Notes: generated from the sequence alone by a model not told the origin. Numbered from the stretch's first letter, positions 50,688 through 62,183 are shown. The stretch: DNA of 64,000 nt from Thermoplasmata archaeon (GCA_046761005.1 JBHIFI010000001.1:11908-75907), one strand, 5' to 3'. Made by a program: numbers and translations.

Positions 50688-50791
50688 GCTCCCGTAGTGT
50701 AGTCCGGCCAATCATCTCGGCCTCTCGCGGTTTTCGTTTTGGCGGGAATCGGGGATAGCCGAAGACAGGGGTTCGAATCCCCTCGGGAGCA
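50688..50791 (+). tRNA. tRNA-Glu(CUC) with a 29-nt canonical intron between positions 37 and 38
   Basis: acceptor stem GCTCCCG/CGGGAGC; D-arm TAGTGTAGTCCGGCCAATCAT (archaeal tRNA-Glu type); anticodon stem TCGGC/GCCGA; loop C-T-CTC-G|intron|A; T-arm AGGGG-TTCGAAT-CCCCT; discriminator A; no encoded CCA. Confidence 0.8.
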
Positions 50792-51694: not shown

Positions 51695-52720
51695 TTATTT
51701 CTGGGGTTTAATGATAACCTTGAGCGAGTCACCAGCCTTCCGAACGAGTTCAAAACCTTTGGCGGTATCTTCAAGGCCGAACCTGTGGGTTATCATCTCT
51801 TGAACGCGAATCTTTCGGGAGGAGATTAGATCGATAGCGTCCCTGATGTCCTCGGGACTGGCTGCGTAGGATGTTGTTATCGTGATGTTCTTGAACCAAA
51901 GCTCGTTGAATGGCATCGAAATCACCGTTTCAGGATCGGTCGGTGCGAAGAAGAGAATGGAACCGCCCAGCTCAACGCAGGACAATGCCCGCTCTATTGC
52001 CTTTTTCGCTCCTGTGGACACAATCACGACATCCGCCAAAAGCCCCTCAAATAGCTCTCTCAACAGATTCGGGACATCCTCATTTGCATGAAATGCGGCA
52101 TCCGCCCCAAACTTGTGGGCCATTGAAAGACGGTATTCGCTTATGTCGGTGCAAGCAACGCTCCGAACTCCCCGAACCTTCGCCAGCTGTAGATGGAGGA
52201 GTCCCGTAAGTCCGCTTCCAATTATGAGAACGTTGCTATCCTTCACCCCGTCGATTTTATTCTGACCTCTGATGACGCATCCCAGAGGTTCTATGAAGGC
52301 ACCCTCCTCGTATGAGATCTCATCAGGGAGCGGAAAGACTCCATGCTTCACATTGCTGGATGGAACCCTGATGTACTCAGAGAACCCGCCAGGGTCGAAG
52401 TTTGTCGTCCTGAGTGTTTCGCACACCGTATGGTGCCCTCTCCGACAGAATCGACATTCCATGCACGGAACATGATGGGAGACGAAGACGCGCTGTCCCG
52501 TCTCATATCCGCTTACTTCGCTACCTACTTGAGCTATATCTCCTGCAATCTCATGCCCAAGGACGCGGGGAGCCTTCTCAATTCGATACCATTCCATGAC
52601 ATCGCTGCCACATATCCCGCTCGCCATGACCTTGACGAGAAGCTCATCCTCTCCGATTGTGGGCTTTGGAATCTCCTCGAGCCTGATGTCCTGATTGCTG
52701 TAGTACATAGCGACTCGCAT
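51695..52720 (-). CDS. zinc-dependent medium-chain alcohol/threonine dehydrogenase family protein
   Basis: GICGSDVMEW...GHEIAGDI catalytic Zn site; structural Zn Cys cluster (CMECRFCRRGHHTVC); GSGLTGL NAD motif. Confidence 0.8.
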   Translation of the reverse strand: MRVAMYYSNQDIRLEEIPKPTIGEDELLVKVMASGICGSDVMEWYRIEKAPRVLGHEIAGDIAQVGSEVSGYETGQRVFVSHHVPCMECRFCRRGHHTVCETLRTTNFDPGGFSEYIRVPSSNVKHGVFPLPDEISYEEGAFIEPLGCVIRGQNKIDGVKDSNVLIIGSGLTGLLHLQLAKVRGVRSVACTDISEYRLSMAHKFGADAAFHANEDVPNLLRELFEGLLADVVIVSTGAKKAIERALSCVELGGSILFFAPTDPETVISMPFNELWFKNITITTSYAASPEDIRDAIDLISSRKIRVQEMITHRFGLEDTAKGFELVRKAGDSLKVIIKPQK

Positions 52721-52773
52721 GGCTTCCTCTCCCTCAATGAATGCTCCTGGTCTGTCGAAGAGAATGTGAGAAG

Positions 52774-53571
52774 CTAGGCTTCACCGCTCTTTGCGCTATT
52801 GAAGATGTCCATCGCTTCCTTGGGTGTAGCGTTATCGTGGACAATCGCCCGCACAGCCTTTATCATGGGGACGGAGTTCTCATTCTGCCATATGTTCCGA
52901 CCCATATCGACTCCTACCGCGCCCGTCTGAATGGCATTGTGCGTCATCTCGAAGGCATCCATCTCCGTCTCTAATTTCGGACCGCCAGCGATTACAATCG
53001 GAACTGGGCAGCCCTCGACAACCTTATGGAAATCCTCGCAATAGTATGTCTTCACCATGTGAGCTCCGAGTTCTGCCGCTATCCTGGAGGCCAATCCAAG
53101 ATATCGCGCGTCTCTCTTTTTCAGTTCTCTGCCCACTGCAGTGACCGCCAACACAGGTATGCCGTACTCCTCGCCCTGATTGACGAGCTCGGACAGGCTG
53201 AGCAGTGTTTGCCGCTCATGGGGTGTTCCCACGAATATGGAAAGAGCCACAGCAGCTGCGTTCAGGCGAATTGCCTCATGCATAGAAGTGGTAATCCCTT
53301 CGTTTGCAAGGTTTTCCCCGACTATGCTCGTTCCCCCCGACACTCGGAGGACAATTGGATTGTCGATTGTGGCTGCGACGGAAGAACGAAGCACGCCCCT
53401 GGTGAGCATTATGGAGTCTGCGTATGGAATGAGCGGATCCAGTGTCTTCTTCGGTTGTTCCAACTTCGTCATTGGGCCCAAGAAATAGCCATGGTCGATC
53501 GCCAGCATAACGGTGTGCCCAGTTTTCGGCTTAAGTATTCGTGACAAACGATTTTTCATTCCCCAGTCCAT
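52774..53571 (-). CDS. DhnA-type class I aldolase (fructose-bisphosphate aldolase FbaB / ADH synthase AroA' family)
   Basis: 265 aa; TIM-barrel; HMVKTYY Schiff-base Lys region typical of the DhnA family. Confidence 0.7.
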   Translation of the reverse strand: MDWGMKNRLSRILKPKTGHTVMLAIDHGYFLGPMTKLEQPKKTLDPLIPYADSIMLTRGVLRSSVAATIDNPIVLRVSGGTSIVGENLANEGITTSMHEAIRLNAAAVALSIFVGTPHERQTLLSLSELVNQGEEYGIPVLAVTAVGRELKKRDARYLGLASRIAAELGAHMVKTYYCEDFHKVVEGCPVPIVIAGGPKLETEMDAFEMTHNAIQTGAVGVDMGRNIWQNENSVPMIKAVRAIVHDNATPKEAMDIFNSAKSGEA

Positions 53572-53697
53572 TTTTCATCCCCTCCCAGTTAAGAATGGGA
53601 TATCAAGCTGTTTCTCGATAAGGAATGGCGATATTTATCCTTTTGTCACCCCTACAGTTCTGGCAGAACGCCCGCCAAATACTATACCTCGCCTCCG

Positions 53698-54399
53698 CTA
53701 TTCCAGAATTCCCGCCACGAGACCTTCGGGAATATGCTTGACCGCTTTTCTCAGCTGATCCGTGTCTAGCTTCCTCGCGTTTTTCCTGAGAAAAGACGCT
53801 ACCGCCTTTGGTTCGCTTTTCCCCAGTTCTCGTAGGACCCAGCCGAGGGACTTCCTCACAAAATATTCATCGTCTTCGAGGAGACTATGAACCATGTCTA
53901 TGACCAACCTCGGATCGGAGCGTCCTTCTCTGTTGGCTGGTATGGTCGATGTCACCGCTCCCCGCCTTCTCCAGAAATTGGGCGATTGAACCCAGCTTGA
54001 CACCCGAGATGTTATATCGTCATCTCTAAACATGAACTCTGAGAGGACGAAGACTGAGATGTCGTCGCAGTTTGCCCAGTTGTCAACATCATCATACCAT
54101 TTGCTTATTAAATCGAACGAACTCCTGTCAAGCCTCCCCCTGAACTTCTTCAATATAGATGCCGCCAGGCTTCTTGCCTCAAGAATGTCTGCATGCCAGA
54201 GCTCGTCAACGACTTGATGTATGTCCTCAAGCTCAGAGTCCCTGTGGGATGCTGCGTATTTCGAGGCCAATGAGTGAATCGTCGGTTTTCTTACGCCGAA
54301 ACTCTCGAGGCGAGTGCCAATATATCTTTCCGCAACCCAGGATGGCTGCTCAACTCTGTTCTTCTTGAGTTCCTCTATGAGACATTGAGTCTCCTTCAC
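53698..54399 (-). CDS. DNA alkylation repair protein (AlkC/AlkD-like HEAT-repeat glycosylase family)
   Basis: 233 aa, all-alpha; DNWANCDDISVFVL and WVLRELGK blocks resemble the DNA_alkylation (PF08713) consensus. Confidence 0.55.
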   Translation of the reverse strand: MKETQCLIEELKKNRVEQPSWVAERYIGTRLESFGVRKPTIHSLASKYAASHRDSELEDIHQVVDELWHADILEARSLAASILKKFRGRLDRSSFDLISKWYDDVDNWANCDDISVFVLSEFMFRDDDITSRVSSWVQSPNFWRRRGAVTSTIPANREGRSDPRLVIDMVHSLLEDDEYFVRKSLGWVLRELGKSEPKAVASFLRKNARKLDTDQLRKAVKHIPEGLVAGILE

Positions 54400-54448
54400 G
54401 GGAATGGGATGAGCGCTCGCATATTAAACTGCTTTTTCCCGGCATGTA

Positions 54449-54688
54449 TCACTTGAGCGCCTGGACTTTCGTCTTTGATAGCCTCTCTTGTGTCTCGGAT
54501 AGTGACCTTAATCTCGGAATATCTTCCCTCTCTACATACGACTCAGCGTATCCACAATTCTCGCAAACGATGAGTGCCAGAGGCCATTTCTGCTCCACAG
54601 TCGATCCACCTGGCCTGTAAGGAGCAAATAGAGACACCTGAAGGCTCGTCTTAGTGCCACTCCCACACTTGACGCAAGATTCCGCCAT
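54449..54688 (-). CDS. zinc-ribbon domain protein
   Basis: CVKCGS...CENCGY four-Cys ribbon; 79 aa. Confidence 0.45.
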   Translation of the reverse strand: MAESCVKCGSGTKTSLQVSLFAPYRPGGSTVEQKWPLALIVCENCGYAESYVEREDIPRLRSLSETQERLSKTKVQALK

Positions 54689-54767
54689 GAGATCCTCGTT
54701 CGAATAGATCCCTCGGGCTTACAAAAGGTTTCCTCTCGTTCGTCGGCAATCCCAAGACAAGCTATTC

Positions 54768-55499
54768 CTAGGGTGGAGGCGGAGGATCCTCCTGAGGCTG
54801 AACTTCTGGCGGTCCGGTTTGACTTGGCGGGTGGATGGTTTGATACGCAGGAGCTTGCTCGGCTGGAGGCGCATGAACGGGCTCGATTTCCAAATCCTTT
54901 GGCTTGACTCTAACTTTGATGGTCTCGGGCTTGGGCTTTATCAGATTCCAACCTGCCTTCGTGACATAGCCTCCAACCACGACCATAGCGAAAAATAGCC
55001 CAACAACGAGAACCGCCAAAGCAAGCGGTAGGAGTATCCTTATGAAATCAATATTCGATTCGAACCCACCAAACTCAGGTTGACTCCTCCCGCTCAGTGC
55101 GGTGTTATTATCAACCTCCACAAGGCCAAAGGCTGAGCTACTCTTTCCATTCTCATCTTCCACAGTCAGGTAAACGGTGTAGGCTCGTTCATCAGGGTAT
55201 ACTTTCGTCGGGTTCTGGAGATTGGATTGATTCCCATCCCCAAAGTCCCAATCCCAGAGCACGATATCCGCATCACCTCTCCTTGATGCATCCTCAAAAA
55301 TGACTTCGTAGTTGTCAGTTGTCCAACTAAAGGAAGCGCTCGGTCCCTCCACGACCTCTTCTTCGGGCAATTGATCCTCAAAGAATTTGCCTGGCGAGGA
55401 GGCCAGCCCGAAGGCAAACAAAAGGACGACGATCAATATGATGATACCGAACACCAGTACTACGGTTCCCAGCACAAGTTCGTATCTCTCTCTATCCAT
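54768..55499 (-). CDS. membrane protein with PKD domain and Pro-rich C-terminus
   Basis: N-terminal TM helix, PKD-like segment (WDWDFGDG...YTVYLTVEDENG), second TM helix, PPPPP tail. Confidence 0.55.
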   Translation of the reverse strand: MDRERYELVLGTVVLVFGIIILIVVLLFAFGLASSPGKFFEDQLPEEEVVEGPSASFSWTTDNYEVIFEDASRRGDADIVLWDWDFGDGNQSNLQNPTKVYPDERAYTVYLTVEDENGKSSSAFGLVEVDNNTALSGRSQPEFGGFESNIDFIRILLPLALAVLVVGLFFAMVVVGGYVTKAGWNLIKPKPETIKVRVKPKDLEIEPVHAPPAEQAPAYQTIHPPSQTGPPEVQPQEDPPPPP

Positions 55500-55599
55500 G
55501 GAAATCGAGGAAACGAGAAATCGAGACGTATATAATGGTGAGGTGGTGATTCTCGCAATTGCGAGTTCTATTTGCCATAGCAGGCATCTCAGATTCTTA

Positions 55600-56220
55600 C
55601 TATTGGCCAGTGCTCTCTCTTTTCAAAGCGGGTTTCCGAATCATTCGGGATGAGAAACCGTCATCGTCAACCAGGTCATCAATCTTCGGTTCTGAGCAAT
55701 CACACACGACCTCACCCACTTCAAGGACTCTGGCTGCCTCGGCCAAACAGTTATTGAACATCCTTAACCATTCCGAATCAGTGTCATCCTTGAACCACTC
55801 ATCGGAATTCAGTTCAAGTGTGATGTAATGGTAACCATCTTCGTCAATGCCCACGAAGATGGAGGAATCAGCTCCATCTCCTGGAACTTCCAGCTCTTCT
55901 AAGAGAAAACCGCTCGTTTTCCTCACCTTGCTCTTGCAAAGTACAGTCATTGGCTGGTCGGCGTACCCGTATTCCTTGACAATCGCAGGGATTATTCCAA
56001 TGCTCTCTAGAGTGATTTTCACATCTCCCGTCTTTCGGTACATTTCGAGTTTGAGAGGTGTGAAGAAAGGAGAGAACATGTTGCAGAATTCAGCGGCAAG
56101 AATCTCCATCTCTCTCGTGGCGGGGATATCGTTGAAGCCCCACCTGACCAGGCTCTTTTCGTGCCAAGTCAAGATTTCCCCTCCGACTCTTTCTGGGAAG
56201 TCAATAGGGGTATAGCCCAA
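55600..56220 (-). CDS. hypothetical protein
   Basis: 206-aa ORF, acidic; 30-nt spacing to the upstream radical-SAM gene. Confidence 0.4.
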   Translation of the reverse strand: MGYTPIDFPERVGGEILTWHEKSLVRWGFNDIPATREMEILAAEFCNMFSPFFTPLKLEMYRKTGDVKITLESIGIIPAIVKEYGYADQPMTVLCKSKVRKTSGFLLEELEVPGDGADSSIFVGIDEDGYHYITLELNSDEWFKDDTDSEWLRMFNNCLAEAARVLEVGEVVCDCSEPKIDDLVDDDGFSSRMIRKPALKRESTGQ

Positions 56221-56250
56221 GGGATACCTAAAGTTGTTGGAGGCTTCTTC

Positions 56251-57150
56251 CTATCGATTCCAACTGTCCAAACTTGCCTGTTTGCTCCATCCTTCATCGA
56301 AGACAGGCCTCGGGATTCTCTCATCAATGTCATATCTCTTGCACAGATCAGAAGCTCTCTTCATTATCTCGTTTGTATAGTCCCGCCTCGGCTCATAGGA
56401 ATTTCCAGCATATAGGTCTTCATACCTGTCAACCAGCTCGGGAAAGTTCTCTCTCAGGAAATCCATGAGCCAATCTCTCTGCCAGCTCTCCATTGTCATG
56501 GAAGCACATAGGACGAATTTGGCACCGTTCTCCTTTGCGGTTGCTATGGTCTCTTCCATCATCTCGATGCTGTCAGTGATGTATGGAACAATCGGCATGT
56601 AAGAGAGACCAACGAGAAATCCTCGCTTCGCGAGTTCCCTTATCGCCCTCATCCTGCTACGCGGTGAAGGAGCTCTGAACTCAAGAAGCCGAGATAGACC
56701 CTCATCCACTGTTGAGAAGGAGAAAGAGATACAGCACCACGTTTGCTTTCTAATATCTTCCAGAATGTCGAGGTCTTTCATCAGGTATGGCGACCTCTCT
56801 ACTATGTGCACTGGAAAACGGAGATCGCGAACGACCTTCAGCATCTTTCTGGAGAGGCCGAACTTCTTCTCCGCGGGCTGGTAGTCACCCGTCACAATGA
56901 CATTCCTCTCCACCCGCGGGAGTTCCTTACGCAGCAGTCGGTGCGCGTTTATCTTGACCTTTATCCTCTCTGCGAAATCAGTGGGGTCTGGATACTGCAT
57001 GTACTTCTCCGCCCTTGAATAGCAGAAGTGACAGCCATGGAAGCATCCAACATACGGATGGGCTGCATACTTGTTCCAATACCAGCCCTCATCGACTTTC
57101 TTATGAACGATAAGAATCCTCTTCGCCCTGTATACCTCATATTCCACCAT
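56251..57150 (-). CDS. radical SAM protein, SPL/SplB-like (COG1533 'DNA repair photolyase') family, paralog A
   Basis: HPYVGCFHGCHFCYS (CxxxCxxC cluster in the SPL-family context PY-GC-HGC-YCY). Confidence 0.7.
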   Translation of the reverse strand: MVEYEVYRAKRILIVHKKVDEGWYWNKYAAHPYVGCFHGCHFCYSRAEKYMQYPDPTDFAERIKVKINAHRLLRKELPRVERNVIVTGDYQPAEKKFGLSRKMLKVVRDLRFPVHIVERSPYLMKDLDILEDIRKQTWCCISFSFSTVDEGLSRLLEFRAPSPRSRMRAIRELAKRGFLVGLSYMPIVPYITDSIEMMEETIATAKENGAKFVLCASMTMESWQRDWLMDFLRENFPELVDRYEDLYAGNSYEPRRDYTNEIMKRASDLCKRYDIDERIPRPVFDEGWSKQASLDSWNR

Positions 57151-58034
57151 TACTTCTTTCTCCTACGACGCGAACGCTTTTTCTTTCCGAAGAGTTCTTT
57201 TCTTCTGGCTTCAAGGAGGTCATCGTTCTTGCCCGTGTATCCGGCAGAGGTGAGAACCTTGACCTTTGACCTCTTCGCGGACTCGAAAACGTCGGGAATT
57301 CTTTCCACCCAGTTCTTCTCTCTGAGCAAATGGTGATCTATTATGAGCGTGCGCAAGTCCGAATCCTCGATGAGGCGTACAGTATTCTTTCGAGAGAGTT
57401 CCATATTCTTCTTCCCGTAGGTTCCCATCATATAGCTCAGGGGACCGTCCATCATGACCGTCTGAGGATTTTGCTCCATTATGAAGTCGATTTGATTACG
57501 AGCGCACCCGCCAACAATATCCGATGTGTGGACGAAGGCGTAGTTGCCCTCACGGACACAGACCTCAAGGACATAGCCCATTCTCTCTTTTGCACCGTGC
57601 ACCACTGGCTTGGAGAAAATGATCTTCGTTCTTCCGAATTGGAATTCCTCACCATCCGCGATTGTGATGTCCTTGGCATATTTCTGAATCAGCTTGGCGA
57701 ACCTTCTACCCCTCCTTTTCTGATTGGTATTTGTCTTTTTCTCGTAGTCCTTCAGAAGTGCGATTTTCCCTCGAAAGACGCTCGGCGCATCGGGATTGTG
57801 ATGATCATAGTGGTAGTGACTGACAGTGATCACTTTTGCCTTTCTTGCTTTATCCCTGATTCCCCTCCACATCTCCGCCCTTCTCTTCTTCTCCAATGTA
57901 TGAGGAGGTAGACCGAATCTCTTGGGAGCGAGTCGTACATTGGGGTCTACGAGGATCCTGCAGTCTCTTGTTTCGAGATAGGTCGCCATACTCCTCGCAC
58001 CCATGCTGTCAGCTGCCAAAGGCATGATTCTCAT
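57150..58034 (-). CDS. metallo-beta-lactamase-fold protein with polybasic C-terminal tail (UPF0282-like)
   Basis: ILVDPNV then VSHYHYDHH (HxHxDH); C-terminus KKKRSRRRRKK. Confidence 0.6.
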   Translation of the reverse strand: MRIMPLAADSMGARSMATYLETRDCRILVDPNVRLAPKRFGLPPHTLEKKRRAEMWRGIRDKARKAKVITVSHYHYDHHNPDAPSVFRGKIALLKDYEKKTNTNQKRRGRRFAKLIQKYAKDITIADGEEFQFGRTKIIFSKPVVHGAKERMGYVLEVCVREGNYAFVHTSDIVGGCARNQIDFIMEQNPQTVMMDGPLSYMMGTYGKKNMELSRKNTVRLIEDSDLRTLIIDHHLLREKNWVERIPDVFESAKRSKVKVLTSAGYTGKNDDLLEARRKELFGKKKRSRRRRKK

Positions 58035-58792
58035 GGTCGCACGGCCCTCAACCAGACCTGTTCTCCTCTTCTCCTGAAGCCCATCTCCTCAGTGAGTCTT
58101 ATGGAAGGCTCGTTATCTGTGAATATGTGGCAGATTGGCGTTTTGCCCTTCTCGAAGACAGCATTTATCATTGTCGTAGCAATAGACATAGCGAATCCTC
58201 TCTGTCTGAATCCTTCTTTCACATAGAGAAACCCAAGCATGACGACTTCATCTGTCTCGAGATGGGTGGCATCCCATGCGACAAGCTCACCATCAACCCT
58301 TATGCCATAGGAGAGGCCCTTTTCTATCCTTCTGCGAATGTAGTGAGTGGAATCCTCGCCTGGGTTCCAATATCGATTGATTGTATCAGCATCCTCCGGT
58401 CTCAACGCGGAGACCTCATGTCGGACCTCCCCTCTAAGGTCCTTTCTCGCAAGAGTGTAGAGCCAGGAAGGGTTGTCCCAGATCACCCTGAAACCCTCTC
58501 GAATCAGGTCAGCGATGTTTCTGTCGACAGCGTGAAATCTGTATTCCTTCCCGCCTTCAAGATGATCGAGGAGCATGCGGATGGCTTCTTCCTTCTTCCC
58601 GACCATGGATATGAGTGTCGGTTGATGGTAGCTCATTGTCATGAGCGCTCGCGGGTCTTCCATTGCGTCGACGAGAATCTCCTGCTCTCCAGTGGAGGTG
58701 TGGAACACTCGATATATAGGAAGCGCATTCCAGAGCGGATCGGTGTAGAGAAGGCCTCTTGCCTTTATTTTTAACCTCAACCTCTCCGCCAT
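58031..58792 (-). CDS. GNAT acetyltransferase domain protein with an N-terminal uncharacterised domain
   Basis: C-terminal VMLGFLYVKEGFRQRGFAMSIATTMIN resembles the GNAT motif A. Confidence 0.5.
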   Translation of the reverse strand: MAERLRLKIKARGLLYTDPLWNALPIYRVFHTSTGEQEILVDAMEDPRALMTMSYHQPTLISMVGKKEEAIRMLLDHLEGGKEYRFHAVDRNIADLIREGFRVIWDNPSWLYTLARKDLRGEVRHEVSALRPEDADTINRYWNPGEDSTHYIRRRIEKGLSYGIRVDGELVAWDATHLETDEVVMLGFLYVKEGFRQRGFAMSIATTMINAVFEKGKTPICHIFTDNEPSIRLTEEMGFRRRGEQVWLRAVRP

Positions 58793-58805
58793 TCTTCTTC
58801 ACCGA

Positions 58806-59345
58806 TTATTTGAGCCTGAGTTCCACGTAATAGTGACTTAGCAAGCCAGGGAAATAGCTCGCACGGATATGGCCTCGCCTGGCCTCGTCCGGTGCATCGG
58901 AACCCCATGAGGCTATGTAATGTTCACTATAATTTCCATCCCAAACGGGGTCTACTAGATCCCAAATGAGAACCACTTCATTTCCATCCAGTCCAAATAC
59001 GAGAATATTGTCCTCGAGGCAAAGACATCTCACCTCGTAGAGATGTTTCGTCAGTATGTCACCAGGACCGGAAATCTGATTGAGCACAAGCGCCCCAGAA
59101 CTTTCCGTGACCGTCAAAGTTGCGTTGTATTCGGCGGCGTATTCGAACCCTCCCTTTGGGTCGCCCGCGTCATTGATATAGAAGGAACCCTGGAAGGTAT
59201 GGGAGATAGAGCACTCACAAGCTTCCCCACTTGGTGGCTCGAAGAACAACCACACCCAAGCACCAGGGATGAGTATGATGACCGTGATGGCAACGATAAG
59301 ATGGGTCACCCTGATTTTCACGCGCCTCGAAAGGCGCTCAGGCAA
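58806..59345 (-). CDS. membrane-anchored hypothetical protein (N-terminal TM helix, extracytoplasmic Cys-containing domain)
   Basis: hydrophobic segment LIVAITVIILIPGAWVWLFF then a soluble domain; overlaps the upstream gene by about 28 nt. Confidence 0.4.
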   Translation of the reverse strand: MPERLSRRVKIRVTHLIVAITVIILIPGAWVWLFFEPPSGEACECSISHTFQGSFYINDAGDPKGGFEYAAEYNATLTVTESSGALVLNQISGPGDILTKHLYEVRCLCLEDNILVFGLDGNEVVLIWDLVDPVWDGNYSEHYIASWGSDAPDEARRGHIRASYFPGLLSHYYVELRLK

Positions 59346-60118
59346 TTAATCCCTTTCGTTCTGCAAGCTCGAAATATCTGGTTCGCGATTTTCTCGAAGT
59401 AACCACGGTCATTCTTCAGTATGGACCACCAAGTCTCTTTCATGCCGTGTTCTGTTAGAACAGGTTCGAGCTTTTTCCATGTATCTCTCTTTAGATTCAA
59501 TTTGTCGACCAAGACCTCGGAGGCGTTTGCATCCTTGATGCTGCTCAGGAGCCCTTCCAGATTCTCTTCCGTCACCAGTGGCAGGATTGGACCGATGAAG
59601 GCCCAGGTCCTGATTCCCCGTGAAGAAAGCTCCCTCATTGCTGCAAGTCTTTCATGAGGGGACGAAGCTCCTGGTTCGAATACTCTTCTCCATTTCTCAT
59701 TCAGAGTCGTGAGTGTAAATCCGACGTTGATTTCCTCGAACTTGCAGAGCAACTCAATATCTCGAAGGATTAGAGAAGATTTCGTCTGAATGCTCACGGG
59801 GAAGTCGTTCTTCAGTAAAAGCTCGAGAGACATCCTGGTAATCCTGTACCTCCTCTCAATGGGCTGATAACCGTCCGTCACTGTTCCTATCCCCACGACC
59901 CCCTTCTCTTTTTTCTTGAGCTCTCTCGCGAGGAGGACAGGAAGATTTCTCTTAGCATCGACGAAATCGCCCCAAGGCCTCGTCTCTCGCAAGACAGCAC
60001 TCGCATAACAGTACTTGCATCCGTGAGAACATCCTCTATATGGGTTGAGAGCATATCTATATCCCGGGAGACGCGAGTATGACAATGCGGATTTGCAGCT
60101 AACCTCCCTAATCTTCAT
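59318..60118 (-). CDS. radical SAM protein, SPL/SplB-like family, paralog B
   Basis: NPYRGCSHGCKYCYA cluster, the same family signature as 56251..57150. Confidence 0.7.
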   Translation of the reverse strand: MKIREVSCKSALSYSRLPGYRYALNPYRGCSHGCKYCYASAVLRETRPWGDFVDAKRNLPVLLARELKKKEKGVVGIGTVTDGYQPIERRYRITRMSLELLLKNDFPVSIQTKSSLILRDIELLCKFEEINVGFTLTTLNEKWRRVFEPGASSPHERLAAMRELSSRGIRTWAFIGPILPLVTEENLEGLLSSIKDANASEVLVDKLNLKRDTWKKLEPVLTEHGMKETWWSILKNDRGYFEKIANQIFRACRTKGINCLSAFRGA

Positions 60119-60566
60119 GTTCGACCCCGCTCATCTCCTTCTCGACTTTTCGAATCATCTTCAGGGTCCCTTTCGTAACATCGTAATTATCCAATTCCTC
60201 GAAGCCGATCCATCTGGTTTCCGTCACGTCCGAGGACGGCCTCGCCTCTCCTCGGGAATAATCACACAGCCAATATATGATGACGTAGTGGAACCTAATT
60301 TCAGAGCTGGAATCCACCCCTATGTAATCGTAGTATCCCACCAATCTCAGGGGTGTCACCTTTAGATTAGACTCCTCAAATGCCTCCCGAACGACAGCAT
60401 CTTCGACAGTCTCTCCTAGCTCAACCGCACCTCCGGGTACGCTCCATTTCCCCTTCCCAGGCTCGACGCCTCGCTTGACTATGAGAATTTTTCCTCCCTT
60501 TCTTATGATTGCGCCAACGGACAGGATGGGCCTGAGGGGATACTCCCTCGAGCTAGTTCGTGACAA
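60108..60566 (-). CDS. NUDIX hydrolase
   Basis: Nudix box GGAVELGETVEDAVVREAFEESNL. Confidence 0.8.
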   Translation of the reverse strand: MSRTSSREYPLRPILSVGAIIRKGGKILIVKRGVEPGKGKWSVPGGAVELGETVEDAVVREAFEESNLKVTPLRLVGYYDYIGVDSSSEIRFHYVIIYWLCDYSRGEARPSSDVTETRWIGFEELDNYDVTKGTLKMIRKVEKEMSGVEHED

Positions 60567-61830
60567 AATCCTCTAGCCTCCTTTGATAGAGCATTTCCTT
60601 CAGGAGATGACTGTTCCTTATCCATCTCTTGATGGGAATGGCCATTCTCTTTGAGATGTAAAGAAGAGCCCTCTTGAGGGAATCGAAGCTTTCGTAGGGA
60701 TGGCGCAAGGCGTTCCTCACATTCTCCCTAACGTTCCATACACCAACCGGGAGGATATATCCGGGATGGGTTTCCCTCAGTATGAGGGTCCCTGCTTGTC
60801 TTCTTTCCCGAATCAATGCTTCGCTCACCGCCAAGCGAGCAGCGTAGTAACAGCCGCCTATATCTGCATACGTCGTTCGACCCTTATATCCCTCCCAATC
60901 GTTGAGAAGCAATATCCTGCTCCCCTTCCTCGGATTCCAAACCGTCTCGGGATACCACGCCTCAATAAGCTCATATCTCCAACTTGTTGGCATCATCAGA
61001 ATGGCCCATCTATTGTCGAGCCTCGACGACCAATAGACCCGATAGTCATCAATCGTTGAGAAGGTCTTTACAACTTCCCTCAGCTCCTTACCCGTGATAT
61101 CATCCACAGCTGTGATGCTCCATCTTGTTGGGACCATTCTCCTATTCTTCTTCAATCCAAAGGCACCAACGCTGAAAGCCCTCTGGACCTTTGTAATGGG
61201 AATTCCCTGCTGGTATAGCTCAATCACTGCGTCTCTGGCCAAAAGGTCCCAGTCACTGTATGCCCTGTCAATCCTCCTATCTATCTTAAGGTTGTCGACA
61301 TCGAACATTCTCAGCGGGGCGGACGGACCCATGGGCTGGCTTGACTCATCGAGGACCAATCTCGATGACGGTTTCTTGGAGAATTGCGCCTCCACATCTG
61401 CCGAGTACGTGGCCATTGCCAATTCCCGCGTAAGATCGACAATCTTTCCTGGGTTCTCAAGGTCGTGGACAGATGTCCTGTGCATTCCTCTAACGAGCTG
61501 AAATCGGAAGTTAATGATATCATCTATGCTCTTGTCAAGCCATCTCTCTGGAAGGTCCAGGATTTCTGTATTCCCATGAACGGGAGGAACCATCGGGCCA
61601 ACATACACCTTTGGATACCCAAGTCTCCCCACGAAGACACTCGGTGGTGAGGATCCATCCAAATCCAATCTGTCAATGAGAGGAACTACTTTGGATCGGA
61701 AATAGTATTTCACCAGAATGGGGCACCGACTCTTGCCACATAGATTTCTGGAACCTTTGCACAAGAGGCAATGGGAACTCCTTCTGACGCTTTTGGAATC
61801 TTGAAAAATGAGTTCGGAATCAGGAAGCAT
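60553..61830 (-). CDS. nreA: NreA-family archaeal DNA repair protein
   Basis: 425 aa; N-terminal Cys cluster CLLCKGSRNLCGKSRCP; overall Nre N/C-domain architecture. Confidence 0.55.
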   Translation of the reverse strand: MLPDSELIFQDSKSVRRSSHCLLCKGSRNLCGKSRCPILVKYYFRSKVVPLIDRLDLDGSSPPSVFVGRLGYPKVYVGPMVPPVHGNTEILDLPERWLDKSIDDIINFRFQLVRGMHRTSVHDLENPGKIVDLTRELAMATYSADVEAQFSKKPSSRLVLDESSQPMGPSAPLRMFDVDNLKIDRRIDRAYSDWDLLARDAVIELYQQGIPITKVQRAFSVGAFGLKKNRRMVPTRWSITAVDDITGKELREVVKTFSTIDDYRVYWSSRLDNRWAILMMPTSWRYELIEAWYPETVWNPRKGSRILLLNDWEGYKGRTTYADIGGCYYAARLAVSEALIRERRQAGTLILRETHPGYILPVGVWNVRENVRNALRHPYESFDSLKRALLYISKRMAIPIKRWIRNSHLLKEMLYQRRLEDFVTN

Positions 61831-62183
61831 CTCTATCTTCCCATATCCTTCTTGACTTCATAAACATTGGTTGAGGGGGTCTGTGAAACTAATAATGGTT
61901 TGCGACTCGCTATCCCCTCTTCGTGTCGCTCTCCTGAGAGAACGGAGTTCTGTATCGCTGAAAAAAGGAAGCCCGCCAAGATTTCTCAGCGCATCCCACT
62001 AATCCGCTGTTATCCGACGAGCAGTTTGGACAACTTTCCATCTAATAGCTTATCTTCGTTCTGCAGAAATGAAAACTTCCACTTCTCATCCCTGCAAGCT
62101 CGATATATCTCGGAGTTCCCACAATAGAGACCGCAAGGAACAGAGAGCTCGAATCCCGTTTCCTTCGAGAACACCGCCAATAC

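Follow-up and report, generated by a model that had tools for sequence, protein, structure and literature searches.

A seven-gene archaeal operon uniting an Nre protein, two COG1533-type radical-SAM proteins and an MBL-fold protein, with a proposed role in the clamp-tethered processing of damaged DNA

Spore photoproduct lyase (SPL) is the precedent for the direct reversal of a DNA lesion by a radical S-adenosylmethionine (radical-SAM) enzyme: SPL-type enzymes (COG1533) repair thymine dimers in Bacillus spores and, to our knowledge, SPL is the single known case of radical-SAM DNA repair. Two genes for COG1533-type radical-SAM proteins, here called rSAM1 and rSAM2, lie close to an nre gene in a 64-kb stretch of DNA from a metagenome-assembled genome (MAG) of a Thermoplasmata archaeon (GCA_046761005.1, JBHIFI010000001.1:11908-75907; 'the window' hereafter is this whole stretch). 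The question that this locus raises is whether the two proteins belong to a system that acts on damaged DNA and, if they do, which of the neighbouring genes are part of it. The original prediction, made from the sequence of the window, was of one module of 13 genes and ~10 kb. We arrive at a shorter unit, the seven genes from nre to rSAM2 (56251-61830, minus strand), arranged as two cassettes, and on balance we favour a role for their products in the clamp-tethered processing of damaged DNA. The seven genes, in the order in which they would be transcribed, are as follows.

60553..61830, minus strand: Nre-family protein, NreA-like, 425 amino acids (Pfam: Nre_N, 333 bits, cutoff 25; Nre_C, 141 bits, cutoff 27)
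60108..60566, minus strand: NUDIX hydrolase, 152 amino acids, Nudix box at 60363-60431 (Pfam NUDIX 75.7 bits, cutoff 21.1)
59318..60118, minus strand: rSAM1, COG1533-type radical-SAM protein, 266 amino acids, CX3CX2C at 60008-60031 (Pfam Radical_SAM 61 bits, cutoff 29.5)
58806..59345, minus strand: TM179, 179 amino acids with an N-terminal membrane anchor (no Pfam or NCBIfam match)
58031..58792, minus strand: GNAT (FR47-like) acetyltransferase, 253 amino acids (Pfam FR47 53.9 bits)
57150..58034, minus strand: metallo-beta-lactamase (MBL)-fold protein of the UPF0282/PRK04286 type, 294 amino acids, HYHYDH at 57801-57818, polybasic tail at 57153-57185
56251..57150, minus strand: rSAM2, COG1533-type radical-SAM protein, 299 amino acids, CX3CX2C at 57022-57045 (Pfam Radical_SAM 45 bits, cutoff 29.5)

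How far does the unit extend? The ORF calls place all 13 of the named open reading frames, from nre to a zinc-dependent alcohol dehydrogenase (Zn-ADH), on the minus strand with the ends that had been predicted, and the domain assignments made for them are confirmed by Pfam and NCBIfam. Thirteen genes on one strand are not evidence of a unit, since the co-directional run extends upstream through DUF655, Rpo4, L21e and Pus10 and the GC skew is negative over ~44-64 kb of the window. Among the first seven genes the junctions are overlaps of 14 nt (Nre/NUDIX), 11 nt (NUDIX/rSAM1), 28 nt (rSAM1/TM179), 4 nt (GNAT/MBL) and 1 nt (MBL/rSAM2), together with one gap of 13 nt (TM179/GNAT); two of the overlaps rest on TTG starts, and identical overlaps are found in the loci L001 and L002. 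Downstream of rSAM2 the gaps are, in order, 30, 100, 79, 49, 126 and 53 nt. The predicted linkage of the first seven genes by overlaps and short gaps is thus borne out, and gene order and junctions, as far as sequence can, support their description as a tight operon. A candidate promoter is found before the first of them.

61857..61864, minus strand: TATA-like box TTTATGAA, putative operon promoter, 34-27 nt before the nre ATG

A second TATA-like box, TTTAATAT, also read by eye, stands 29-22 nt before the ATG of the downstream alkD gene, and the separate boxes before nre and alkD suggest distinct transcription units. In the 353-nt interval that follows DUF655 the seven-gene operon probably has a promoter of its own, and a hairpin followed by a T-run (61991-61974), likewise situated after DUF655, would fit a terminator of the upstream unit. 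The boxes were picked manually; a scan for sigma-70 promoters and intrinsic terminators, which is unsuited to archaea, returned counts equal to the shuffle expectation. An Rfam scan of the window found nothing in the gap upstream of nre and one tRNA only, a 104-nt, presumably intron-containing gene on the plus strand (50688-50791, 49 bits), while ARAGORN reported no tRNA anywhere in the window. The DUF655-nre interval (61831-62183) is a bare gap in the window; in relatives it is occupied by an opposite-strand gene of ~270-290 amino acids (L081:3327-4136, L086:3286-4149 and L087:3291-4124), the L086 and L087 copies of which have a weak match to HTH_Crp_2.

Conservation separates the genes of this operon from one another and from those around it. 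Two loci, L078 from a Methanomassiliicoccales MAG and L081 from a Logan contig, keep DUF655, Nre, rSAM1, GNAT, MBL and rSAM2 at 51-65% protein identity, with different flanks. Both loci are without NUDIX, TM179 and any of the genes found downstream of rSAM2 in the window and, because they retain just Nre-rSAM1-GNAT-MBL-rSAM2, we take these five genes to be the conserved core. TM179, the membrane-anchored protein encoded between the two cassettes, has homologues in L001 and L002 only and is missing from L078 and L081, which marks it as a lineage-specific insertion.

The first of these, cassette A (Nre-NUDIX-rSAM1), is a widely conserved archaeal trio. Homologues of rSAM1 of more than 50% identity are found across Thermoplasmatota, Hydrothermarchaeota and Asgard archaea, and 80 loci were recovered from metagenomes with rSAM1 as the anchor, 59 of them with at least 700 nt of upstream and 30 with at least 3 kb of downstream sequence. 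The complete trio is present in 26/59; Nre directly precedes rSAM1, without NUDIX, in a further 18, which brings the recurrence of the Nre/COG1533 pair to 44 of the 59 loci. Four more hold NUDIX-rSAM1 cut by the contig end and 11 have neither gene upstream. In all four contexts that were sampled, two from Heimdallarchaeota (L085, L088) and two from Thermoplasmatota (L086, L087), the trio lies on one strand with tight spacing. On one metagenome contig (L140:2493-3660) an rSAM1 homologue without an upstream Nre is directly followed by a convergent gene for a UPF0282-type MBL.

Cassette B (GNAT-MBL-rSAM2), by contrast, is confined to Thermoplasmatota and stands after rSAM1 only in a small clade of them (L001, L002, L078, L081), and GNAT, MBL, rSAM2 and TM179 are downstream of rSAM1 in 0/30 of the loci with at least 3 kb of sequence there. 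From this count it follows that the array of the window is the widespread cassette A with cassette B attached in one small clade. Co-occurrence of these genes across genomes, the check that accompanied the original prediction, is therefore seen for the five-gene core in L078 and L081 and not as a general rule. The same count is what would be expected of an accidental juxtaposition, in which two or three functionally independent units (Nre-NUDIX-rSAM1, GNAT-MBL and rSAM2) are co-transcribed and share no pathway. Such an explanation also accommodates the existence of a solitary rSAM2 orthologue (L082), the MBL neighbourhood that changes in almost every lineage and the gain or loss of NUDIX and TM179 inside the array. 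We nonetheless judge it unlikely, for the five-gene order has been held at the distance of L078 and L081 while both flanks changed, the genes overlap at their start and stop codons, an independent link joins GNAT-MBL to the other Nre paralogue in further Thermoplasmatota (L014, L032, L073, L169, L171) and rSAM2 and Nre have in common a C-terminal PCNA-interacting protein (PIP) motif, which is described below.

The six genes that follow rSAM2 encode a 206-amino-acid protein, a PKD protein, a zinc-ribbon protein (a weak match), an AlkD-like protein (DNA_alkylation, PF08713, 155 bits), a DeoC-family aldolase and the Zn-ADH. L001 and L002, whose MBL proteins are 73-78% identical, are the only loci in which these six stand beside the core, and L078 and L081 lack them; in L081 rSAM2 is followed by an unrelated V4R gene on the opposite strand. 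Their synteny would seem to be only what is expected from recent common descent, and these genes, AlkD included, are probably mere neighbours of the operon. A single 13-gene module, as originally proposed, is accordingly rejected, given that the core is kept without its downstream genes, and so is the place given in it to AlkD, which has a TATA-like box of its own. The sole independent support for the proximity of AlkD is one adjacency of an AlkD-like gene and an rSAM2 homologue in Anaerolineae.

What, then, connects the operon with DNA? One connection is the C-terminus of rSAM2, which ends in the PIP box QASLDSW (within 56254-56280). The pattern Qxx[LI]xx[WFY] is found at the C-terminus of 18/18 rSAM2 orthologues (~298 amino acids, 51-81% identical) and falls inside the last 7-9 residues in 17 of them, while the surrounding residues vary. 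As a control, 726 ORFs from the MBL loci, each of at least 120 amino acids, were scanned for the motif in their last 12 residues. It was present in 20, namely seven Nre, four PolB, three PolD DP2 and three rSAM2 proteins and three others (one beta-CASP MBL, one unknown protein and one TauE membrane protein), so that in this data set a C-terminal PIP motif marks almost only known clamp clients. The next-closest homologues of rSAM2, ~50% identical and 360-395 amino acids long, from Methanofastidiosia, Theionarchaea, Anaerolineae and others, have a C-terminal HHH_8/HHH (HhH) domain in place of the PIP tail. In Theionarchaea these HhH-fused homologues are directly followed by FEN1 and an ATP-dependent DNA ligase (L083:8001-11682, L084:4677-8358), and on an Anaerolineae chromosome (L173:4201-8760) an AlkD-like gene directly precedes the HhH-fused homologue and an AlkZ-like gene lies 1.5 kb downstream. 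Two archaeal contexts of HhH-fused homologues have NUDIX and POR genes upstream; no repair neighbours are present in the KSB1 or L082 contexts.

The second connection is the Nre protein. Its Pfam scores place it in the Nre family, and it carries an N-terminal CX2CX6CX4C motif (61723-61770) and a PIP box, QRRLEDFV, at residues 416-423 of 425 (within 60556-60585); the consensus of this box among rSAM-linked Nre homologues is Q[RK]x[LI]xD[FY]. The name NreA, which the original prediction used, is secure at the level of the family, through Nre_N, Nre_C and the PIP motif, but not as an equivalog, the haloarchaeal model NreA_Halo (NCBIfam NF041387) giving 262 bits where 700 is the cutoff. On that model the rSAM-linked group scores 262-280 bits; another Nre group of Thermoplasmatota, which is 38-41% identical to the window protein and ends in QRRITxY, reaches 235-237 bits. 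These values do not tell NreA from NreB. A search of the PDB with an Nre profile gave no informative match. NreA itself binds PCNA and is needed for the repair of mitomycin C damage, and the adjacency of Nre and SplB-like genes has been noted (PMC4929162, PMC7776575). The PCNA binding and mitomycin C role are known for the NreA proteins of Hfx. volcanii and A. fulgidus only; in Haloferax the role of NreA in this repair is PCNA-dependent (PMC4929162), and NreA is epistatic with UvrABC. Sequence analysis has given no clue to the function of Nre, and attempts at purification failed (PMC4929162).

The gene order upstream of nre raises the possibility of a role in RNA rather than DNA metabolism, since the block Pus10-L21e-Rpo4-DUF655 followed by Nre is kept in many Thermoplasmatota loci. 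The rSAM proteins might then modify tRNA or rRNA, the MBL might act like RNase Z or RNase J and the NUDIX protein as an RNA 5'-end hydrolase, or the operon might serve ribosome or transcription biogenesis. The fold matches of the MBL (RNase Z, RNase J and CPSF73 among the nearest) and of rSAM1 (MiaB) agree with this, as do several tRNA and translation genes among the MBL neighbours. Yet the trio of Heimdallarchaeota (L085, L088) has a different upstream context, both Nre and rSAM2 carry PIP boxes, relatives of rSAM2 are fused to an HhH DNA-binding domain, and the neighbours seen elsewhere include FEN1-ligase, AlkD/AlkZ, NucS, PolB, Ogg, EndoV and UDG. With the PCNA-dependent mitomycin C phenotype of NreA (PMC4929162) and the LexA control of COG1533 genes (PMC4951493) added to these, we regard a role in RNA as quite improbable.

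The radical-SAM proteins themselves are 31% identical to each other, with the cluster motifs CSHGCKYC (rSAM1) and CFHGCHFC (rSAM2); the three cluster cysteines are invariant in 21 homologues. They had been described as SPL-like, which is right at the level of the COG1533 superfamily but not in the sense of orthology to SPL. Against the SPL model TIGR04070 (cutoff 400) rSAM1 scores 15 bits and rSAM2 has no match, and phmmer searches of the PDB align rSAM1 only marginally with the solved SPL, at E = 0.04 over 34 residues, and give no match for rSAM2. Nor did the structural comparison with SPL that had been proposed recover it: the AlphaFold2 (AF2) model of rSAM1 (pLDDT 85.9) finds generic radical-SAM folds in Foldseek (SuiB, LipA, NifB, MiaB), and SPL is not among the top 50. 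SPL orthology is rejected on these comparisons. The best NCBIfam families are PA0069 (163 bits against 360) and mob_pairB for rSAM1, both below cutoff, and Rv2578c for rSAM2 (167 bits against 430). Archaea are not known to contain spore photoproduct (PMC4929162). In several bacterial phyla LexA regulates COG1533 'splB' genes (PMC4951493), a tie of the wider family to DNA damage that is regulatory only.

The MBL protein provides the third connection, which is of a different kind. It is identical to NCBI ACE5QW_00345, scores 281 bits against the family model NF003287 (cutoff 286) and has at least 589 archaeal relatives of 45-80% full-length identity, being conserved at ~45% in many archaeal phyla. 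The metal ligands H73, H75, D77, H78, H146, D172, H234 and H235 are invariant. Its AF2 model has a pLDDT of 89.7, and a profile search of the PDB found no sequence-level relative; a literature search on UPF0282/COG2248 found no functional study. The polybasic tail KKKRSRRRRKK that had been pointed out is indeed there, but it is restricted to the lineage of the window and is rejected as a feature of the family. The sequence LLEARRKELY near the C-terminus was considered as a PIP box and rejected, as it has no Q and is off consensus.

The neighbours of the MBL were collected from 80 genome loci anchored on this protein and searched with all 14 window proteins. Unbiased clustering of the neighbours found no universal partner. 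In 17 Bathyarchaeia loci the mismatch endonuclease NucS/EndoMS is encoded upstream on the same strand, and in 16 of these its end overlaps or lies within ~30 nt of the MBL start (~1.4 kb upstream in L043). These loci are L021, L024, L037, L044-L048, L052, L053, L057, L059, L061, L064, L065, L068 and L076 (~10 kb into each locus), also L043, and in most of them an inorganic pyrophosphatase gene follows the MBL. Ogg and/or PolB lie near the MBL in six Aenigmatarchaeota/Nanoarchaeia loci (L003, L009, L013, L022, L062, L067), Endonuclease V in Jordarchaeia and Freyarchaeota (L023, L051) and a methyltransferase-UDG fusion in L041; an ATP-dependent DNA ligase adjoins it in Geothermarchaeales (L066) and is found in Nanoarchaeia alongside a beta-CASP MBL. 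In Thermoplasmatota the neighbour is the second Nre paralogue (L014, L032, L073, L171), often with an FR47-type GNAT directly upstream of the MBL (L008, L032, L054, L169), and the GNAT-MBL pair as such occurs in L008, L032, L054, L078, L081 and L169. The original prediction expected links to repair genes in other genomes, and these exist: Nre, both rSAM proteins and the MBL are all linked by gene context to repair or replication genes elsewhere. A rough count gives ~8 repair or replication genes in ~90 directly adjacent slots (~45 neighbourhood types, the denominator being partly sorted by eye), where ~2-3 would be expected on the assumption that 2-3% of the genes in a genome are of this kind.

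Several further observations concern these loci. The second Nre paralogue adjoins, or lies a few kb from, GNAT-MBL in the absence of any rSAM gene in L014, L032, L073, L008, L054, L169:12500-13765 and L171:8078-9355, and in L169 two FR47-type GNAT paralogues precede the MBL while a further GNAT gene follows Nre. At L003:8986-9999, in a Nanoarchaeia MAG, a 337-amino-acid beta-CASP/RMMBL-type MBL with the PIP-like end QKKILDFIEKD is encoded directly upstream of the UPF0282 MBL. In Archaeoglobaceae (L056:13457-17059, L072, L079) PolD DP2 lies ~2.6 kb downstream of the MBL, and close by are also an MtnA-like gene and another MBL-fold gene, not related to the first; the DP2 copy of L072 has 1672 amino acids, making an intein probable.

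Other neighbours of the MBL belong to nucleotide metabolism or are phosphoesterases: PPase, CMP kinase, CTP synthase, OMP decarboxylase, HD, DHH and PHP proteins and an AP_endonuc_2-type TIM barrel. The first four of these, with the HD and DHH phosphoesterases, occur beside the MBL in several lineages and are what one would look for if the MBL and the NUDIX protein sanitised damaged dNTPs or cleared radical-SAM by-products, giving metabolic support only. The NUDIX protein, which has an intact Nudix box (GX5EX7REUXEEXGU), fits this in that its best matches are MutT-like, though below cutoff (TIGR00586, 50 bits against 97.9). A housekeeping role of this kind is, however, difficult to reconcile with the translational coupling of NucS to the MBL in the 17 Bathyarchaeia loci (most within 30 nt), with the genes for DNA ligase, PolB, EndoV, UDG and Nre that directly adjoin the MBL elsewhere or with the polybasic tail of the window protein, which suits the binding of a polyanion, and we consider it very unlikely.

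The reading that we favour, clamp-tethered processing of damaged DNA by the seven-gene operon, would work as follows. Cassette B has been placed directly behind cassette A in one small Thermoplasmatota clade, with a membrane-anchored ORF inserted between them in the lineage of the window. Nre and rSAM2 would be recruited through their PIP tails to PCNA at sites of replication or repair, where the two COG1533 proteins could direct 5'-deoxyadenosyl radical chemistry at a DNA lesion; the target would be a bulky or cross-linked adduct, directly reversed or cleaved, and not spore photoproduct. The MBL, with a predicted binuclear metal site, may act as a phosphodiesterase or nuclease on a DNA intermediate or on DNA ends. 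At a guess, the NUDIX protein would remove either a damaged nucleotide or a by-product linked to a nucleoside diphosphate; the GNAT protein might have a regulatory or modifying role. As to the lesion, a weak hint of bulky or cross-linking alkylation comes from the need for NreA in the repair of mitomycin C damage and from the AlkD/AlkZ genes beside one rSAM2 homologue. A more specific proposal, which we make tentatively and with more doubt than conviction, is that PCNA-docked Nre and the PIP-tailed rSAM, together with the second rSAM and the MBL, reverse or excise bulky or cross-link lesions of the kind that mitomycin causes or that AlkD or AlkZ acts on, again by 5'-deoxyadenosyl radical chemistry, in a pathway that would have no characterised counterpart, the MBL being a previously unrecognised general archaeal repair nuclease whose partner (NucS, PolB, ligase, EndoV or Nre) depends on the lineage.

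Several points weigh against a role in damaged-DNA processing, beyond the restriction of cassette B to one clade and the lack of a universal MBL partner already described. Neither Nre nor this rSAM clade nor the MBL has a known biochemical activity. The PIP motif is a short one, and the binding of PCNA by Nre and rSAM2 is a prediction from sequence, as are the promoter calls. The Foldseek matches of rSAM1 are generic radical-SAM enzymes, RNA- and peptide-modifying ones included, and in Thermoplasmatota the operon comes directly after the translation/transcription block Pus10-L21e-Rpo4-DUF655. Many MBL neighbours are translation or tRNA genes (eIF2-beta, aIF5B, MetRS, DRG, TtuA, ThiI), and the enrichment of repair genes beside the MBL that the count of ~8 against ~2-3 suggests is rough and uncorrected for phylogeny.

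How much of this is new? The adjacency of an archaeal Nre gene and an SplB-like radical-SAM gene has been published (PMC4929162, citing Giroux & MacNeill 2016), so that the Nre/rSAM link itself is not new and the description of the locus as 'not a described system' has to be narrowed to the rest of the composite. In the literature on that pair, the primary 2016 paper aside, we found no mention of NUDIX as a third member, which it is in 26 of the 59 loci. This third member appears to be new, and so do the alternation of PIP and HhH tails in the rSAM2 clade, the recurrent repair neighbours of the MBL and the composite seven-gene operon. If the proposed function is true, radical-SAM DNA repair reaches beyond spore photoproduct lyase. 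Since 2016 it has been asked what Nre and the archaeal SplB-like rSAM proteins do; the locus gives no mechanism but makes the question more testable, offering as handles the conserved NUDIX-containing trio, an rSAM2 clade with a PIP or an HhH C-terminus and a pan-archaeal orphan MBL that recurs beside the genes of PCNA clients.

It remains to compare the locus with the systems that are known. SPL of Bacillus and Clostridium, like both rSAM proteins of the window, is a radical-SAM enzyme of COG1533 with a CX3CX2C motif. The LexA-regulated 'splB' genes of bacteria (PA0069/Rv2578c), likewise uncharacterised, are the best-scoring hidden Markov model (HMM) families for both proteins, but scores so far below the equivalog cutoffs (163 against 360 and 167 against 430) point to related clades and not to membership; moreover, the archaeal genes have an operon and PIP or HhH tails where the bacterial ones have an SOS box. 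The MBL is only 11-17% identical to RNase Z/ElaC, RNase J/CPSF73, the ComEC nuclease domain and SNM1/Apollo and, unlike the known MBL-fold nucleic-acid phosphodiesterases, has no beta-CASP or exosite domain. With the Nre/SplB-like pair the window locus shares its layout, an Nre gene followed by a COG1533 rSAM gene with an overlap or a short gap, and the Nre proteins of both have the N-terminal Cys4 motif, the C-terminal PIP box and the tie to repair through the mitomycin C phenotype of NreA. According to a review, however, the SplB-linked paralogue is NreB, with a less clear PIP motif (PMC4929162), whereas the rSAM-linked Nre of the window has a canonical PIP box and belongs to the paralogue group that fits the haloarchaeal NreA model slightly better. 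To this known pair the window locus adds the GNAT protein, the MBL and a second, PIP-tailed rSAM.

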